IMG/VR virus record: IMGVR_UViG_3300015369_000076 | Coordinates: 1 to 38,129 of that record | Origin: a virus | Reading direction: 5' to 3' (one strand) | Length of the DNA: 38,129 bases | In this document: piece by piece, positions 1-38,129 of the stretch | How positions within the stretch are numbered: position 1 is the stretch's first letter | Layout of the letters: each line of letters opens with the position of its first letter | Notes under the pieces: model-generated | Told to the model about the DNA's origin: nothing | Database searches by the model: none | What the model saw: only the letters and a program-made list of their open reading frames with translations | Program-made: the position numbers and the translations under genes

Positions 1-141
1 CGGGACAATCGAGGCTTCGGGGGTCGCATCCAGGGCGGAAGGCTACGTCAACAACGGGGCGTCGATAAAGGCCGAGGGTGACGGGTCGAGTGCGGGCGGA
101 TGGACGGGGACCGGTTTCATCCAGGCATCGGGCGCCGGGTC
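1..141. repeat. Terminal direct repeat copy A (identical to 37989..38129); overlap of a circular or circularly permuted assembly
   Basis: Compared by eye, nt 1-141 equal nt 37989-38129 base for base. One ORF crosses the junction in frame. Confidence 0.9.
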
Positions 142-2139: not shown

Positions 2140-2445
2140 ATGGCAAAGAAAAAAAGGACAGTGGTCAAGGCCGTAGTTGAGATGGTCGGGGAACACATCA
2201 CGCTGAGCGCCGAAGCGGGAAAGGTGAACGACAGGTTCACAGGCATCGCCTTCGGGGTAGTTACTGAAGACGGGGTGGTGCTCCCCTGTACGCTCTCTCT
2301 AGATATCTATGGACCTGTAGCTAACGGCTACGGAGGGGAGTATACCGATGAGATGGACTCTCTTCTCAAGGGCTTCAGAACAAGACTCATTGAAGACTTC
2401 GGGGCTGAATTCGAAGATCAACCGACTAATGACAAGGAGGATTAA
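2140..2445 (+). CDS. Hypothetical protein (fibre module, 101 aa)
   Basis: ATG ORF tightly packed between the shaft gene and the DGR target. No motif recognised. Confidence 0.6.
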   Translation: MAKKKRTVVKAVVEMVGEHITLSAEAGKVNDRFTGIAFGVVTEDGVVLPCTLSLDIYGPVANGYGGEYTDEMDSLLKGFRTRLIEDFGAEFEDQPTNDKED

Positions 2446-2447
2446 TT

Positions 2448-3731
2448 ATGGCGACGAATAACACGAAATACTATTCTCTCCGTTTTGCGACCAAGGATGA
2501 ATATCTTGCATCCAAGGCCAGCGGGAAAATCTATACCACTCTCATGGACAGCACCTACGTCTCAAGGGCGGTGGTGAGCTACATCGAAGAGATCGGGCGT
2601 TCTGTCACTGACGCTATCAACATCATTGCGCCCATCTCGCGAGTACAGGTAGGCGACTGCGTCCTCTATAATGCAGATGACGGCAAGCATTACGCCTTGA
2701 AGGGCCATGAGGAATGGGACGCCACGAAGCTTGGTGGATTCAGCTACAATGCCACCGACTGGGCGGAAGCGGGCTACACCTTGCTCGGATGGCTCTACAA
2801 GAGGGAAGGCAAGGAGGGAAGGATTCTGTCCAACGCCGACTTCGGGGCTCTCCAGTATGACAGCGAGAATACATCCGATAGCAAGGTATCGTCCTATACT
2901 TCGATGACCAGGGCGGACGGGCAGTCCATCAACTGCCAGGACTCCAAGAGCACGAGGGTCTGCATCTCCCTCGACTGGACGGACATCGCCTACACTTCGA
3001 ACAGCTATTACAACTGGCCCCTCCTGAGGGACAACTGGGATACCATCATGACCGCCTACGGACAAGGCACGGACACCGACGGATGGGTGGCCGTGGTCGA
3101 CAAGTTCGCGGAGGCGACCTCGGGAACGGCCCTCTGTTATGTGGCCTACAAGATAGAGGGAGGAAAGCTCACCATAGCCATGACAGGGAACGCCTTCTCC
3201 GCCGGGGACGAGACCATCACCGTGACCTACTCCGACGGGGAGACCACCGTGGACATCACGCCCCACCTCATCTACCCCGCGGACTGGGACTACTCTTTCG
3301 ATAAGTGGGCTAAGGGCGAAGCCCTGGCCGAATTCCCCGCGACCAGCGGTGTGCTGACCGACATGGACGGGAAGCGCAACACCACCTCCCAGTGCATTGC
3401 GAGCACGAAGGCGGTCGCACCGCTGAAGGTCATAGCATATGCCATAAAGGACGTTGACGGCAACGCCATCCCCGGCGTGCAGGCGGGAGACTGGTGGATC
3501 CCCTCGGCTGGGGAATGGGCGGAATACCTGTTTGCTGCGAAGAGGCTTTATGAGAAGGGCTTCAGGCCGGCAAACGCATGGATGAACACCAGCTCTCAGA
3601 ACGGAAGCTTGAATTGGAAAGCGCCCATACTTTTTGCGACCAGTTCAGCCGCGTCATCGAACATGTACTGGGGCAATAAGAATCACCGCAACTGCAGGGC
3701 ACGCGGTATCGCCGCCTTTCACATTGATTAA
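2448..3731 (+). CDS. DGR variable (target) protein, putative receptor-binding tail protein with a C-type-lectin/DUF1566-like C-terminus
   Basis: ATG at 2448 lies 2 nt after the previous stop codon. The C-terminus GDWWIPSAGEWAEY...NAWMNTSS...NMYWGNKNHRNCRARGIAA resembles DUF1566/FGE-type DGR targets. The VR occupies the last codons before the stop. Confidence 0.85.
   Translation: MATNNTKYYSLRFATKDEYLASKASGKIYTTLMDSTYVSRAVVSYIEEIGRSVTDAINIIAPISRVQVGDCVLYNADDGKHYALKGHEEWDATKLGGFSYNATDWAEAGYTLLGWLYKREGKEGRILSNADFGALQYDSENTSDSKVSSYTSMTRADGQSINCQDSKSTRVCISLDWTDIAYTSNSYYNWPLLRDNWDTIMTAYGQGTDTDGWVAVVDKFAEATSGTALCYVAYKIEGGKLTIAMTGNAFSAGDETITVTYSDGETTVDITPHLIYPADWDYSFDKWAKGEALAEFPATSGVLTDMDGKRNTTSQCIASTKAVAPLKVIAYAIKDVDGNAIPGVQAGDWWIPSAGEWAEYLFAAKRLYEKGFRPANAWMNTSSQNGSLNWKAPILFATSSAASSNMYWGNKNHRNCRARGIAAFHID
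3649..3716 (+). repeat. DGR variable repeat (VR)
   Basis: Aligns without gaps to 4365-4432 (offset 716). There are 8 mismatches within 67 nt, all opposite TR adenines, plus one more A-to-C at the 3' edge. Confidence 0.85.
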
Positions 3732-3750
3732 TCCTTAATCCTTCAACCTT

Positions 3751-3772
3751 GGGCGGGGCCCCGTCCCCGCCC
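3751..3772 (+). promoter_or_regulatory. GC-rich hairpin downstream of VR (candidate DGR target-recognition hairpin/cruciform)
   Basis: gggcgggg-ccccgt-ccccgccc gives an 8-bp all-G/C stem and a 6-nt loop, 35 nt after the VR end. No T-run follows, so it is not a typical intrinsic terminator. Confidence 0.6.
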
Positions 3773-3784
3773 CATCAGTCAGAC

Positions 3785-4315
3785 ATGCCGAAGAGACAGC
3801 AGAGCATATCATTCGCAGATCAGGAGAACTATCCTCTTGAGGGGAAAGTGACCGTGCAGACGATTGCCAGGAGCAACAAGATAGATACAACCGCTTTTGC
3901 TCCTCCCACTTCTGTACTGGATGCGCTCCCTGTCTACAGGGTAGTCAAGAACCTCAGGGATAACTACGTCAAGAATGTCTACGACCATCTGAAGGTCAAG
4001 TACCGGAGGACCGTGGGCGACAGGCTCCTTGACCTGCTCTTCGACAGTGTGGGCTATCTGGCAATTATCGGCACGAGTACCGACTTAGGGGATAAGCTGA
4101 GGGCTACCGGGGCATTCCTTCGCACTTACGCACAGGTGCAGGACTGCATCGGCTTCCTCTGCTCCGACCCGGACATCGGGCTCCCGCTCAAGAAAGCTGC
4201 GACACTTTATAGACAAATCGGAAATATAGAAGCGCAAATGCAGGGCTATAAGAACTCTCTAAGGGTCAGGGCGTCGGAGGCTGAGGCGGCCAATGGCGGA
4301 GAAACTCGTCAGTGA
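3785..4315 (+). CDS. avd: Avd-like accessory variability determinant (small basic helical protein)
   Basis: Located between target and TR. The helical, basic sequence (LPVYRVVKNLRDNYVKNVYDHLKVKYRRTVGDRLLDLLFDS...) resembles the four-helix-bundle Avd family. The first ATG is 3785; the TTG at 3749 lies inside the hairpin. Confidence 0.65.
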   Translation: MPKRQQSISFADQENYPLEGKVTVQTIARSNKIDTTAFAPPTSVLDALPVYRVVKNLRDNYVKNVYDHLKVKYRRTVGDRLLDLLFDSVGYLAIIGTSTDLGDKLRATGAFLRTYAQVQDCIGFLCSDPDIGLPLKKAATLYRQIGNIEAQMQGYKNSLRVRASEAEAANGGETRQ

Positions 4316-4364
4316 AAGGGAGCCCTCCACTCATTTAGTGGTTTCAACGGGCTTTGAAATACTT

Positions 4365-4432
4365 CCGCGACATCGAACATGAACTGGAACAATAAGAATA
4401 ACAACAACTACAGGGCACGCGGTATCGCCGCA
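4365..4432 (+). repeat. DGR template repeat (TR), adenine-rich, AAY-codon design
   Basis: ccgcgacatcgaacatgaactggaacaataagaataacaacaactacagggcacgcggtatcgccgc(a). I counted 25 adenines and 8 AAY codons in the VR reading frame. The 3' GC-rich block is identical to the VR. Confidence 0.85.
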
Positions 4433-5647
4433 TCTCGCTGCAACGAGAGTAGTCCTTTGCGCTTCTCCATTTCCGACATCGACATGCTCAAGAGTGCCAT
4501 GGCGTGCCAGAAAAACAAGACATCATCGCTGGATGAGATAAGGTTCGAGATGAAGGGAGGCACGGCGGTTCTGGGCATTGTCGATGACATGAACGCCGGA
4601 ACATATTCATTTATCCCTGCCTCGGCCTTCGTTCTCAGGAGGCCGGTCCCCAGGGAAGTCCTCGCGGCCGCCTACAGGGATCGTGTGAGGCAGACCTGGG
4701 AGATGGAGCGCATGGAGAGAATTCTCGAAGGCATTCTCCCGACGAATGTCACTGCGAACAGAAAAGGAGGGGGATGCCTCTATGCCACGAACCGGGTATT
4801 CGAGCTCTTCGATGCATACCCCGACGGCTGGGTTGCTAAGTTCGACCTGCAGGGCTTCTTCATGAGCGTCGACAAGAACATCCTTCTGAAGCTCGCACTA
4901 GATGCGATAGACCTTCACTATGAAGGAGAGGATAAGGAGGCACTAGCCTACTATGTCAAGGACGAACTGGGGCATAGGGTCCAGAATGACTGCAAGCTCC
5001 GTTGCTCCCCGAAGGAATGGAGGAGGCTGCCCGCCCATAAGAGCATGTTCACCCAGCCCGAAGGGAGGGGGCTTCCCATCGGCAACCTTCCCAGCCAGGT
5101 GCTGGTGCAATTCCTCCTGAAGGAGATAGTGGACTTCATCGAAGGCTACGGTCTCGGGGTGGTGGACTTTGCGGATGACTTCGTAACCGTGGGGGACAAA
5201 GGTACGATACTCAGGATGATGGGCGAACTCAGGAGATGGCTTGCGAGCGAGCTCCACCTGACTCTCCATCCTGCGAAATTCTATATGCAGCCGGTACGAC
5301 ACGGAGTGACCTTCGGGGGCTACAGGTTGAGTCCGGGAAGGAGAATCATCGGAAAGCGGACTGAAAGGAGAGCGCTGGCTAAGGCGCATTGGATTTGTTC
5401 GCATTCTGATACCCTGCCACCGGAGAAGGCCGCCGCCACTCTGAATTCATACTTGGGGAGAGCAAGATACTGTGAAGCGGGAAAGATGGTGAAGGGAATT
5501 AGGGAAGAACTGGAGGGGTCGGAGCTTCAGAATATTCTCTGGTATGATTGGAGGCGGTGTATCGTAAGAGTAAGGACGAGAGAGCGCTTGAAAAGGACAT
5601 GCGCCAGGGAAGTGATAAGAATGAGAAAACAATACAATAGAATATGA
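4379..5647 (+). CDS. DGR reverse transcriptase (true start possibly ATG 4484; the 5' extension overlaps the TR)
   Basis: RT motifs read in the translation: GFFMSVDKN, LPIGNLPSQVLVQFLL (the I/LGxxxSQ hallmark of DGR RTs), VVDFADDFV (xADD catalytic motif) and LHPAKFYMQPVRHGVTFGGY. Confidence 0.9.
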   Translation: MNWNNKNNNNYRARGIAASRCNESSPLRFSISDIDMLKSAMACQKNKTSSLDEIRFEMKGGTAVLGIVDDMNAGTYSFIPASAFVLRRPVPREVLAAAYRDRVRQTWEMERMERILEGILPTNVTANRKGGGCLYATNRVFELFDAYPDGWVAKFDLQGFFMSVDKNILLKLALDAIDLHYEGEDKEALAYYVKDELGHRVQNDCKLRCSPKEWRRLPAHKSMFTQPEGRGLPIGNLPSQVLVQFLLKEIVDFIEGYGLGVVDFADDFVTVGDKGTILRMMGELRRWLASELHLTLHPAKFYMQPVRHGVTFGGYRLSPGRRIIGKRTERRALAKAHWICSHSDTLPPEKAAATLNSYLGRARYCEAGKMVKGIREELEGSELQNILWYDWRRCIVRVRTRERLKRTCAREVIRMRKQYNRI

Positions 5648-6114
5648 CGACGGTCAAGATAGCACCCCTCGCAGCAAAGACTGTGACAGTGGCGCTCTCC
5701 GTGGCGTGGTTCATGGAGAGTCTGCAGTCCATGCTCCCATGGCTCATCGCCTGCGTCCCCCTCATCCTCCTGGACCTCCGGTGGGGCGTCAAGGCGGCAC
5801 GACACCGCCACGAGCTCGTGAGGGTATCCAAGGGGATACGCGCCACGGTGGGCAAGGCGTTCGAGTACGTCTGCTGGGTGTCCGTGTCAGTACTCCTCGC
5901 CGAGACGTTCGGCAAGGAATGGATAGAGCCTCTGGTGCTGGCCCTCGTCATCCTCAACGAGTTTTCCTCCATCGTGGGGAACTACATGGAGACGAAGGGC
6001 TACAGGCTGAACAGGTCGGAGATCTGGAAGGCGCTAGCCAAGAAGGGGAGCGACGCCGTGAGCCTCGACCTCGACACGAGCGAACTCATAGAGAAGGAGA
6101 AGGATGGAGAATGA
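5644..6114 (+). CDS. Holin-like membrane protein
   Basis: Three hydrophobic segments, the LNEFSSIVGNYMETKG motif resembling the Phage_holin_4_1 family, and a position immediately upstream of the endolysin. Its ATG overlaps the RT stop (ATGA). Confidence 0.6.
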   Translation: MTTVKIAPLAAKTVTVALSVAWFMESLQSMLPWLIACVPLILLDLRWGVKAARHRHELVRVSKGIRATVGKAFEYVCWVSVSVLLAETFGKEWIEPLVLALVILNEFSSIVGNYMETKGYRLNRSEIWKALAKKGSDAVSLDLDTSELIEKEKDGE

Positions 6115-8680: not shown

Positions 8681-8711
8681 CCTTCCTCGTCGTGAGACAA
8701 GGGAGGTTTTT
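8681..8711 (+). terminator. Terminator-like hairpin (GUGA loop) plus T-run, abutting the integrase stop codon
   Basis: ccttcct...gtc-gtga-gac...agggagg followed by ttttt. It is oriented for + strand transcripts, convergent with int. Confidence 0.5.
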
Positions 8712-9801
8712 ACCACTCCGGCTTCCGTTTCCCCTTTACGAAGTCCAGTGTCCATCGCATGCCCTTGTCCGCCTTGGATTCGTCCGGATCTACATATACC
8801 ATGGTGACGGCCCTCGAAGTGTCCGAGTGCCCCAGCATCTGGGCTATGACCTCCAGGGGGACGCCTACCTGGGACGCCAGTGTGGCCACTGAGTGGCGGG
8901 CCTCGTAGGTCGTGTGCCCGATGTCCTTCTTCATCTGCCTGCAGGCATTGATGTACCAGTTCCTGTAGGAGGACGTCCCCTCGCAGAACGAGAACAGCCT
9001 CTCGGTGCCTCTCCACTTCCTCATCAGGTACGCCGCCTCCGGTTCTACCTTGACCGAGTACCTCTTGCCTGTCTTGCTCCGGACGTAGGTGATGCGGCCG
9101 TTTTTGTAGTCCCCTGGCCGGAGGTTGTAAAGGTCAATCGCATTGATACCTCGGAGACAGAATATCAGCACCCAGACATCCCTCCACTTGCCGTGCATGC
9201 TGTTGAATATCCGCCGGACCTCCCTGATTGGCAGCGCCCTCTTCTCGGTCTCCTCGTTCTTTATCTTTATCTTGCTGAACGGATAGCAGTCCGTCAGGCC
9301 GGTGTCCCTGGCATGGTTGAACACGGCCCTCATGTTGCGGAGGTGGATGTTTACCGTATTGATAGTGTTCCCGCGGCCCTCCAGCCAGCTCCTGAACTTG
9401 GATATGTAGGGCGCATCGATTTCGAAGAAGTCCCTCTGGGCTATCATGGGATCGAACCGATGAAGGAGCTTGCTTGTACGGACGTATGTCTCCACGGTCC
9501 TCGGCTTGTTCCTTGACTGGGCGAATTCTTCATAGGCCTTGAGGAACGCTCCCCTGACTACCTTTTCGACTCCCATCAGGGAGCGAATCTTGCCGGTAAG
9601 CGTATCATTGTCGATGGCCTTCAGCCTGCCTGCCAGGGCGAGGTCCGCAAGGTAGGTGTTGACTCGGGACGCCATCATCTGTACCGCCGGATCTGTCGCA
9701 GGCCGGCCGGTGGAGACGAAGATATACTTGCGGTTGTGGCGGAGTCTCAGGAATGCGCTGCTGCACCCCTTCTTGGTGAATATCGTGACTGTCTGTTTCA
9801 T
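8710..9801 (-). CDS. int: Tyrosine recombinase / phage integrase
   Basis: C-terminal catalytic pattern (ARHSVATLASQVGVPLEVIAQMLGHSDTSRAVTMVY) and N-terminus MKQTVTIFTKKG...LRLRHNRKYIFVSTG, typical of Bacteroidota-type phage integrases. The start at 9801 is chosen because the longer ORF (to 9945) reads through the arm repeats. Confidence 0.9.
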   Translation of the reverse strand: MKQTVTIFTKKGCSSAFLRLRHNRKYIFVSTGRPATDPAVQMMASRVNTYLADLALAGRLKAIDNDTLTGKIRSLMGVEKVVRGAFLKAYEEFAQSRNKPRTVETYVRTSKLLHRFDPMIAQRDFFEIDAPYISKFRSWLEGRGNTINTVNIHLRNMRAVFNHARDTGLTDCYPFSKIKIKNEETEKRALPIREVRRIFNSMHGKWRDVWVLIFCLRGINAIDLYNLRPGDYKNGRITYVRSKTGKRYSVKVEPEAAYLMRKWRGTERLFSFCEGTSSYRNWYINACRQMKKDIGHTTYEARHSVATLASQVGVPLEVIAQMLGHSDTSRAVTMVYVDPDESKADKGMRWTLDFVKGKRKPEW

Positions 9802-9809
9802 GCCGTTTT

Positions 9810-9830
9810 GGTTTAACTTTGGTTTAACTT
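9810..9830. repeat. attP arm-type repeat pair (GGTTTAACTT x2)
   Basis: Direct tandem copies at 9810-9819 and 9821-9830. Confidence 0.6.
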
Positions 9831-9875
9831 TCGGCCGGTCCGGGGCGTAACTCCCTGACATGCCGGCACGGCCTT

Positions 9876-9897
9876 GGTTTAACTTTTGGTTTAACTT
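9876..9897. repeat. attP arm-type repeat pair (GGTTTAACTT x2)
   Basis: Direct copies at 9876-9885 and 9888-9897. Confidence 0.6.
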
Positions 9898-10000
9898 TTT
9901 TCTCCGAAAAGCCCCAAAACGCTCCAAAATGTCCCAAAATGACACATGAAGAGCGTCAAGGATAAGCAGTATACCCTTGACGTAACAGATTGATATTCAG

Positions 10001-10061
10001 CGGAAAGACAGGGATTCGAACCCTGGAGCCGCATACGCGACTACCGGTTTTCGAGACCGGT
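10001..10061 (-). other. attP core: 3' ~61 nt of a tRNA-Ser(CGA) gene (anticodon arm, long variable arm, T arm, acceptor 3' strand, G73)
   Basis: The reverse complement reads CCGGT-CTCGAAA-ACCGG / TAGTCGCGTATGCGGCTC / CAGGG-TTCGAAT-CCCTG / TCTTTCC-G. No D arm or 5' acceptor strand is present, so it is a fragment rather than a gene. Confidence 0.7.
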
Positions 10062-10117
10062 TAATCTTCCGTATAATCCCTTAGTGGCTAGTCTGTTACG
10101 GAGGGAACTTTTCTCTT

Positions 10118-37377: not shown

Positions 37378-38129
37378 ATGGCAAAGCCTAAATATACTGA
37401 ACCGAAGAAGCGGAGGATAGGCAACGACCTCTCCTTTGCCTGGAGCATAACGTACAAGGACAGCGGCGACCCCTTCGACCTTGAGGGCCTCACCTTGAAG
37501 CTTACCCTGTGTCACGGCGACTATGAGAAGAGGATTCCCGTGACGGACTTCGACGTGGAGGAGAACGTCATCAGCTGGAAGTGGGCGGCCGCCGACCAGC
37601 CTGTCTGCGGAAACTGGTACGCCCTTCTGGAGAGCGTCGACGACGTGGGCGAGGCTCATACGGTCGACATGTGCATGATAATATGCCTCGTTCCCCACAC
37701 CTATATGGAGACTGACGCGACTGATACGTCGGTGGATGTGGAGACTGTGGAGCTTAGTTCCGAACTGCAGGAGATCATGAGGGGCTATTCGGCCTACGAG
37801 ATCGCCGTGCAGCAAGGCTATGAGGGGACCGAAGAGGAGTGGATAGAGTCGCTTCACGCCAAGTGCCTCTGGGAGAGGGGTGGCGGAAACAATTCCCTCG
37901 TCGCAAAGAACAGCAACGCCGAAGCCCTGGGGGCTTTCGCCCTTGCAAGGGGGTACATCCCCCTGCTGCCCGTGACCCAGCAGCCCTACGGGACAATCGA
38001 GGCTTCGGGGGTCGCATCCAGGGCGGAAGGCTACGTCAACAACGGGGCGTCGATAAAGGCCGAGGGTGACGGGTCGAGTGCGGGCGGATGGACGGGGACC
38101 GGTTTCATCCAGGCATCGGGCGCCGGGTC
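37378..38129 (+). CDS. Tail fibre protein, 5' part (continues at nt 142 after the terminal repeat; the whole gene is 37378..38129 joined to 142..592)
   Basis: Hand translation from ATG 37378 is open to the window end. It contains the fibre motif SAYEIAVQQGYEGTEEEWIESL. Confidence 0.75.
   Translation, partial: MAKPKYTEPKKRRIGNDLSFAWSITYKDSGDPFDLEGLTLKLTLCHGDYEKRIPVTDFDVEENVISWKWAAADQPVCGNWYALLESVDDVGEAHTVDMCMIICLVPHTYMETDATDTSVDVETVELSSELQEIMRGYSAYEIAVQQGYEGTEEEWIESLHAKCLWERGGGNNSLVAKNSNAEALGAFALARGYIPLLPVTQQPYGTIEASGVASRAEGYVNNGASIKAEGDGSSAGGWTGTGFIQASGAG
37989..38129. repeat. Terminal direct repeat copy B (identical to 1..141)
   Basis: Base-for-base identity with nt 1-141. Confidence 0.9.

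Follow-up and report, generated by a model that had tools for sequence, protein, structure and literature searches.

A compact diversity-generating retroelement of BPP-1 architecture in the genome of a temperate tailed phage

Introduction

There is a good understanding of diversity-generating retroelements (DGRs), and those carried by phages number in the tens of thousands. In phages, they allow the tip of a tail protein to be rewritten. As a hallmark, the 3' end of a target gene contains a variable repeat (VR), which falls within a variable domain of the C-type-lectin-like or Ig-like kind. The locus described here lies in the IMG/VR virus record IMGVR_UViG_3300015369_000076, whose positions 1 to 38,129 were analyzed as a whole and are called the window in the following. 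It raises the question whether a 67-nt segment at the end of a phage gene and its near copy further downstream are the VR and the template repeat (TR) of a DGR, and whether this element still diversifies its target. The analysis makes it very probable that the window carries a DGR with the architecture of the BPP-1 element, consisting of a target gene with its VR, avd, TR, and a reverse transcriptase (RT) gene, in a temperate tailed phage. Unless stated otherwise, the cassette features given with coordinates lie on the plus strand.

Template and variable repeats

A repeat search within 2-8 kb of the window returned a sole outstanding direct repeat, which pairs positions 3649-3720 with 4365-4436 at a spacing of 716 nt. 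In a gapless comparison at this offset, VR (3649-3715) and TR (4365-4431) align over 67 nt with exactly eight mismatches. These fall at TR positions 4370, 4382, 4388, 4389, 4400, 4403, 4404, and 4410, the TR base is A at each of them, and the opposing VR bases are, in order, T, T, G, G, C, C, G, and G. A first-pass annotation made from the sequence had proposed this very pair. Re-alignment recovered its eight positions with zero non-adenine mismatches inside 4365-4431, and recounting gave the same 25 adenines in the TR, the same 8 AAY codons, and the same 14 codons with A at position 1 or 2.

Read in the frame of the target gene, the TR encodes A-T-S-N-M-N-W-N-N-K-N-N-N-N-Y-R-A-R-G-I-A (ATSNMNWNNKNNNNYRARGIA) and the VR encodes A-S-S-N-M-Y-W-G-N-K-N-H-R-N-C-R-A-R-G-I-A. 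The TR adenines are distributed over codon positions 1/2/3 as 13/10/2 (binomial P = 0.0035 for two or fewer at position 3), and all eight changes between TR and VR affect codon position 1 or 2 and are non-synonymous. They alter residues S403, Y407, G409, H413, R414, and C416 of the target, in which the VR comprises codons 401-422 of a total of 427. AAY codons cannot become stop codons. An AAG codon at TR positions 4392-4394 (VR 3676-3678) encodes Lys411, a conserved lysine of the target family, and unlike the AAY codons it could mutate to a TAG stop; the VR retains AAG at this site.

One alternative is that the 3' end of the gene was duplicated as an ordinary short segment and then diverged by normal point mutation, with the adenine bias being coincidental. 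As 37% of the TR bases are A, some bias would arise by chance, but the hypergeometric probability of eight out of eight mismatches falling on A is 1.7e-4, and the changes are without exception non-synonymous. In addition, the copy is located exactly between a homolog of Avd and a DGR-type RT gene, and about 70 related loci are laid out in the same way (see below). An ordinary duplication is effectively refuted by this context, and we attach next to no weight to it. The restriction of the VR/TR differences to adenines shows that mutagenic homing has occurred in this lineage.

The 3' boundary and the post-VR hairpin

The terminal 21 nt of the pair (CAGGGCACGCGGTATCGCCGC) are the same in VR and TR and are found nowhere else in the window at up to three mismatches (0.00 occurrences expected by chance). 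G or C occupies 11 of the last 14 positions of the VR. At the edges of the pair the two copies diverge at non-adenine positions, as the first-pass annotation had described for the 3' side: upstream, there are non-A mismatches at TR positions 4363 and 4364, and downstream, position 4432 (A in the TR, C in the VR) is followed by a match at 4433 and non-A mismatches at 4434 and 4437. Position 4432 had been put forward as a possible ninth mutagenized adenine. The A/C difference is real, but it lies 3' of the invariant 21-mer at a silent third-codon position and more likely belongs to the boundary that distinguishes the initiation of mutagenic homing (IMH) site from IMH*.

In the VR copy, AT-rich sequence specific to the VR comes after the GC-rich identical segment (3695-3715) and differs from the flank of the TR. 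This IMH-like 3' boundary (3695-3750) may, by analogy with BPP-1 (PMC3240598), function as the equivalent of IMH versus IMH*. A GC-rich inverted repeat, GGGCGGGG-CCCCGT-CCCCGCCC (3751-3772, not assigned to a strand), lies 34 nt beyond the VR end and is predicted to fold into an all-GC stem of 8 bp with a 6-nt loop. The BPP-1 element requires a hairpin/cruciform for retrohoming, which has a GC stem of 7-10 bp and a GRNA loop and may lie at variable distance (Guo et al. 2011, PMC3240598). A strong hairpin occurs within the 90 nt that follow the VR in 66% of 65 related loci, compared with 3% of random background windows. These hairpins are nearly always found at +31 to +44, and their loops are mostly GNRA tetraloops. 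The position and composition of the inverted repeat at 3751-3772 make it a candidate for the target-recognition hairpin or cruciform of the element. A function as a terminator was considered and rejected: the hairpin is not followed by a T-run and was not called by terminator prediction.

Reverse transcriptase

The RT gene (4484-5647) follows the TR directly. Its start is uncertain, with ATG 4484, TTG 4457, and ATG 4379, which is located inside the TR, as candidates; a distance of 25-52 nt separates the end of the TR from the RT start. The product matches RVT_1 marginally and phrog_1423 strongly (1e-44), and its best match in the PDB is 8ub7_A (E 2e-11), which the fold library labels as DGR ribonucleoprotein reverse transcriptase. 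DGR RTs are characterized by the signature [I/L]GxxxSQ instead of the retroviral QGxxxSP, together with a catalytic xxDD motif. In the window RT, the motifs LPIGNLPSQ and FADD, the latter containing the catalytic DD, are present, and every column that is invariant in 22 clade members is retained. The protein collection contains 778 homologs, the nearest with 41% identity. Judged by these sequence features, the product of 4484-5647 is an RT of the DGR clade.

RTs are also found in group II introns, retrons, DRT/UG systems, and CRISPR-associated loci, and the repeat could in principle be unrelated to an RT of such origin. A weak match to the group II intron RT/maturase model TIGR04416 (49.5 bits versus a cut-off of 300) and weak PADLOC matches to a generic RT (60.6 bits) and RT_UG4 (33.6 bits) point in this direction, but all of these scores are far below the family thresholds, and an Rfam scan of the window was negative for introns, retrons, and all other RNA families. 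Moreover, the best relative in the structural database is a DGR RT, homologous RTs are encoded in canonical DGR cassettes with bAvd and Lcl_C targets, and the neighboring genes encode tail, Avd, and lysis functions. An origin from another retroelement or defence system is therefore extremely improbable, and the assignment to the DGR clade stands.

The open reading frame (ORF) that starts at ATG 4379 shares the frame of the VR, and gene callers accordingly give an RT of 422 aa whose Asn-rich N-terminus is encoded by the TR. The same kind of gene call, in which the TR is part of an Asn-rich N-terminus, was made for 17 of 21 aligned RT homologs. Translation of the TR as an N-terminal extension of the RT was nevertheless rejected as a candidate, because only 18 of 59 unique TRs (31%) are in frame, which equals the chance expectation. 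The in-frame reading thus seems to have arisen incidentally, from a TR frame that is free of stops and from descent within one subclade.

Avd accessory protein

Avd is a basic protein that forms a four-helix bundle and occurs in about 74% of DGRs. Between the target gene and the TR of the window, an ORF at 3785-4315 (alternative start TTG 3749) encodes a protein of 176 aa with an isoelectric point of 9.2, which is within the range published for Avd proteins (Wu et al. 2018). At the sequence level, this protein has no match in Pfam, including bAvd and 23S_rRNA_IVP, or in PHROG, NCBIfam, or the PDB. It belongs to a family of 11 members, whose profile was compared by hhalign with a profile of 23 accessory proteins whose genes occupy the equivalent place in related DGR loci; 19 of these 23 proteins match Pfam bAvd. 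The two profiles align over residues 45-162 with a probability of 98.2% and an E of 3.7e-14. In the AlphaFold2 (AF2) model, which has a predicted local distance difference test score (pLDDT) of 76, helices span residues 44-170 and a disordered N-terminal extension of about 43 aa precedes the helical bundle. The top Foldseek matches of this model in the PDB are the S23-family four-helix bundles 2gsc and 2rld and the Avd protein of BPP-1 (8ub7_E and 4dwl_C), with target-normalized TM (template modelling) scores of 0.75-0.79 at 2.7-2.9 Å root-mean-square deviation. According to profile and model comparison, the product of 3785-4315 is a divergent Avd with an extra disordered N-terminus.

Target gene and variable domain

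The target gene (2448-3731) is the last gene of the tail/fibre module and encodes a protein of 427 aa; its ORF stops 16 nt beyond the VR end. No match to this protein was obtained in Pfam, PHROG, NCBIfam, or among PDB sequences. A word-indexed protein search returned only the target itself, and 39 relatives emerged when 1.84 billion representatives were searched exhaustively with HMMER. In the alignment of this family, the N-terminal domain is conserved and the members have the C-terminal motif G.WW(L/I)PS..E...YW.STQ...AW.V...K...VRAV.AF in common. Pfam Lcl_C (DUF1566) is matched by 23 of 33 aligned family members, with a best E of 5e-9. The AF2 model of the target has a pLDDT of 83 and a predicted template modelling score (pTM) of 0.85, and its best match among the predicted viral structures of BFVD is a phage protein with a DUF1566 domain (E 8e-8). 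On the strength of relatives, motif, and model, the VR is placed in a DUF1566/Lcl_C-type, C-type-lectin-like C-terminal domain of the target. VRs of the DUF1566 type are a recognized class of DGR targets (Wu et al. 2018).

Related loci and diversification in the clade

A scan of IMG/VR with the RT alignment yielded 558 relatives, and 80 IMG/VR loci with related RTs were searched for repeat pairs near the RT gene. A TR/VR pair in the same layout was found in about 70 of these 80 loci, with 7-22 adenine mismatches and 0-1 others. The TRs are mostly 100-110 nt long, and the VRs are located 600-900 nt upstream of them. The nearest RTs (P0003 and P0004) are encoded in loci with the same synteny and with homologous target and accessory genes, while somewhat more distant RTs belong to textbook cassettes annotated as Lcl_C, bAvd, and RT. 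Together with the RT, Avd, the target, and the hairpin, these loci support the reading as a TR/VR pair with an IMH/IMH* boundary that was implicit in the first-pass annotation.

Some of the related loci allow a direct comparison of VRs that go with the same template. Loci L006/L008 and L007, which come from different samples, have an identical 91-nt TR, and their VRs (2182-2272 / 4439-4529 in L006/L008 and 4439-4529 in L007) differ from it at 15 versus 9 adenine positions. Likewise, L009 and L010/L011 have an identical TR and different VRs. Because sister loci combine identical TRs with different VRs, the clade is demonstrably diversifying.

RNA elements flanking the TR

Two predicted RNA structures bracket or abut the TR. 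The first is a long-range duplex with a 5' arm in the 3' part of avd (4218-4238) and a 3' arm that begins 25 nt after the TR and overlaps the region of the RT start (4456-4476). The arms are complementary at 19 of 21 positions (shuffle P 0.003), and the duplex dominates the predicted minimum free energy (MFE) fold of 4200-4500. An ungapped helix scan of the sequence upstream of the TR versus the 70 nt downstream placed the best helix at equivalent positions in all 10 loci of the closest subclade, with 5' arms between -124 and -209 and 3' arms between +12 and +49. The duplex sequences differ among these loci. Shuffle P values range from 0.003 to 0.19 per locus, and Fisher's combined P is 2e-10 for the 10 loci, some of which are related to each other. 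In a cryo-EM study of the Bordetella DGR ribonucleoprotein, an avd:Sp duplex termed 'cPRT Stop' was described and predicted in 207 other DGRs (Handa et al., 10.1101/2023.10.23.563531). The window duplex resembles this avd:Sp duplex in topology and may correspond to it.

The second structure (4310-4363) abuts the 5' end of the TR and consists of an outer stem AGCCC/GGGCU around the hairpin CCACU-CAUUU-AGUGG. RNAalifold analysis of a seven-locus alignment gave a consensus structure in which 8 of 12 pairs covary. A search with a covariance model built from this alignment gave 18 matches with E values of at most 1, and all of these lie on the plus strand. Seventeen of them are full-length and located just upstream of a TR, including eight in loci outside model building; strong matches lie within about 15 nt of the TR, and distances reach about 50 nt for the weakest. 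The last of the 18 matches is partial and covers 17 nt in L009. The window element itself scores 48 bits on the family model. In the enlarged alignment, 91.9% of cells are paired and 9 of 12 pairs show compensatory changes; none of 500 shuffles reached a covariation as good, and slid registers score far lower. In relatives, the stem-loop was located at 5039-5097 in both L004 and L008, 2305-2363 in L013, 754-812 in L014, 2291-2351 in L015, 2476-2533 in L094, and 2500-2558 in both L095 and L096. The Rfam scan of the whole window assigned no family to 4310-4363, and a literature search, which was not exhaustive, found no published description of this element.

A small stem-loop, UCUCG-CUGCAA-CGAGA (4433-4448), is predicted in the MFE fold just after the TR and is possibly the counterpart of the Avd-binding stem-loop known downstream of TRs (10.1101/2023.10.23.563531). 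A complementarity of 7 bp between TR positions 4414-4420 and 4502-4508 was considered as a template:primer duplex and set aside, as a match of this length is expected by chance according to a hand estimate.

With a stem-loop abutting the TR, the 5' duplex arm 125-210 nt upstream inside avd, the 3' arm over the region of the RT start, and Avd and target families that curated models do not see, the DGR RNA of this subclade might be organized differently from the Bordetella paradigm, a proposal that we make tentatively and hold at somewhat less than even. Should the cDNA stop or the recruitment of RT-Avd depend on the stem-loop instead of the long-range duplex, the stem-loop would constitute an undescribed DGR RNA module, and it would then also account for the delimiting of a TR as short as 67 nt.

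Evidence on present-day activity

Several observations weigh against a working DGR at this locus or against the assignment of its parts. The same phage is present on three public contigs (L001-L003), which carry identical VRs and TRs, without VR polymorphism. A degenerate TR pattern, in which A was replaced by N, found no variants in metagenome_contigs and genome_contigs, and scans of the same collections with target-protein patterns yielded neither population variants nor prophage copies. At 67 nt, the TR is unusually short compared with the usual 100-110 nt of the clade. The loop of the post-VR hairpin has 6 nt (CCCCGT) and is not a GRNA tetraloop; in BPP-1, enlargement of the hairpin loop by 2 nt nearly abolished homing (PMC3240598), while 6-nt loops also occur in several relatives. 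Finally, target and Avd-like protein escape all curated family models and were assigned by profile and structure comparison, and when the target model was compared with the PDB by Foldseek, no meaningful match resulted. Further searches were likewise negative: an exact search of IMG/VR with the 21-mer found no further relatives or VR variants, a single-protein RT pattern search of IMG/VR found nothing, and megablast of 2400-5700 against INPHARED phages found no nucleotide-level relative.

A relic, that is, a formerly acting cassette that no longer diversifies and whose VR is now a fixed allele, would agree with the presence of one VR in three contigs from at least two samples, with the lack of variants in large scans, with the atypical hairpin loop, and with the short TR. 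However, all cassette components are intact: the RT retains each of the residues invariant in the clade, including the catalytic DD, the ORFs of avd and target are uninterrupted, the VR has no stop codon, and the flanking RNA elements are preserved, as seen from the score of the 5' element on its family model. Furthermore, three contigs of one sample kind are too few for detecting turnover. We regard a relic as improbable and favor a DGR that is presumably still functional. Since the three contigs share one VR and four scans gave no other copies, its activity at present can only be inferred.

Phage genome and cassette layout

The first 141 nt of the window (1-141) are identical to its last 141 nt (37989-38129). 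Because of these identical ends, the window represents a complete, circularly permuted phage genome of about 37,988 bp. Genes for capsid, tail tube, tape-measure, and fibre-like proteins are followed by the DGR cassette and then by genes for holin, amidase, and integrase. Within the cassette, the order is target gene (2448-3731), GC-rich inverted repeat (3751-3772), accessory ORF (3785-4315), TR (4365-4431), and RT gene up to 5647. The cassette is a complete DGR of the BPP-1 type in a circular temperate tailed phage. A tRNA-Ser(CGA) gene on the minus strand (10000-10080) directly adjoins the tyrosine integrase gene (8710-9945, minus strand), which suggests an attP site in or next to the tRNA gene and a temperate lifestyle.

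One of the three contigs of this phage, the near-identical L003, originates from a hoatzin crop metagenome (sample table, Roux et al. 2021). The phage comes from a gut-type community, and the hosts of its subclade are probably Bacteroidota. Over 8.5 kb, L003 differs from the window only in the holin gene, which comes just behind the RT gene: 19 substitutions and a single indel of 1 nt are tightly clustered there (window 5643-6033, L003 4130-4521). At the differing positions, L003 has A or C in most cases, and its holin ORF is disrupted by the indel. The differences show no adenine specificity, and the cluster is probably a sequencing or assembly artefact.

Upstream of the target gene, a fibre-like protein of 501 aa (623-2128) contains short periodic repeats (…NASDIS.LKT.VA…). 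Its gene matches itself at an offset of 42-43 nt around 1201-1369, and the protein has weak matches to fibritin/tail-protein PHROGs. A 101-aa ORF without a family match (2140-2445) lies between this gene and the target gene. At the same place, related loci carry ORFs of 117-137 aa; those two are alike and have no BLASTP similarity to the window ORF.

Comparison with known DGRs

The window cassette resembles the BPP-1 DGR (mtd-avd-TR-brt) in gene order, in adenine-specific VR/TR differences with an AAY-rich template, and in a tail-fibre-module gene whose 3' end contains the VR and whose variable domain is C-type-lectin-like. The two also share a helical-bundle Avd, an RT with the IGxxxSQ motif, whose best PDB match is 8ub7, a GC-rich hairpin after the VR, and an RNA duplex between sequences upstream (avd) and downstream of the TR, as in avd:Sp. 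In contrast to BPP-1, the TR has 67 nt instead of 134 nt, and the window RT aligns only weakly and partially to bRT (E 2e-11). The spacer between TR and RT is only about 25-50 nt long, unlike in BPP-1, and any spacer RNA elements must therefore overlap the RT coding sequence. While the 5' duplex arm adjoins the TR in BPP-1, it lies 127-147 nt upstream of the TR in the window, where a separate conserved stem-loop occupies the TR-adjacent position. Further differences are the 6-nt, non-GRNA hairpin loop, the DUF1566/Lcl_C-type target instead of Mtd, and the N-terminal extension of about 43 aa in an Avd that Pfam does not recognize.

The closest RTs from cultured phages are those of Bacteroides uniformis phages F1 (Bacuni_F1), F2, and F4, with 32-34% identity over 86% of the query. 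These are tailed phages of Bacteroidota hosts; the identity is low, and the comparison is by RT alone. Closer counterparts are metagenomic phage loci, namely L004-L008, with RTs P0003/P0004, as well as L013-L015 and L094-L096. They share with the window the synteny of fibre gene, small ORF, target gene, accessory gene, TR, and RT gene, as well as a common Avd family, target family, 5' stem-loop, and long-range duplex. They differ from it by RT identities of at most 41% and by TRs of 91-127 nt, and the 5' RNA element of the window has diverged from theirs by compensatory hairpin changes and lacks their conserved UAUAUCAC segment. In Legionella-type targets (DUF1566/CLec2, Wu et al. 2018), the VR is also found in a DUF1566/Lcl_C-type C-terminal domain. 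However, the Legionella element resides on a chromosome and has lipoproteins as targets, whereas the window target belongs to a phage tail module and has an unrelated N-terminal domain.

Proposed mechanism

The biochemical steps, the current activity, and the role in host range are inferred only from homology with the Bordetella phage system. A transcript that runs from the 3' end of avd through the TR into the start of the RT gene would fold in such a way that the duplex 4218-4238/4456-4476 and the stem-loop 4310-4363 flank the TR. The RT together with a multimer of the Avd-like protein would bind this folded RNA and synthesize cDNA from the TR, copying C, G, and U faithfully and inserting random bases opposite A. 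The cDNA would then replace the homologous VR, with the shared GC-rich 3' segment and the hairpin at 3751-3772 guiding the replacement. In this manner, up to 14 codons, mostly AAY, could be recoded on the ligand-binding face of the DUF1566/C-type-lectin-like domain. About 1e12-1e13 peptides would be possible, and the presumed outcome is a changed receptor specificity.

Prior record and significance

In the RT-cluster table of Roux et al. 2021, the entry Meta_3300005362_Ga0074254_102915655 forms a singleton cluster, and the target given for it is phage-structural. Locus L003 corresponds to contig Ga0074254_10291565, on which the RT gene is the fifth gene. If the identifier was parsed correctly, the entry appears to be the RT of L003, so the element would already have been catalogued automatically, though not described. 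Given this apparent record and the advanced understanding of DGRs, the value of the locus as a discovery is small, and its novel aspects are only mild: Avd and target families that are invisible to Pfam, a very short TR, and a covarying stem-loop adjacent to the TR.

As Avd and target escape Pfam, annotation pipelines would call both proteins hypothetical. With its 67-nt TR in a complete circular genome, the element is a clean and compact example of a divergent subclade, and the covariation evidence from this subclade for RNA elements flanking the TR could guide work on the boundaries of DGR cDNA.

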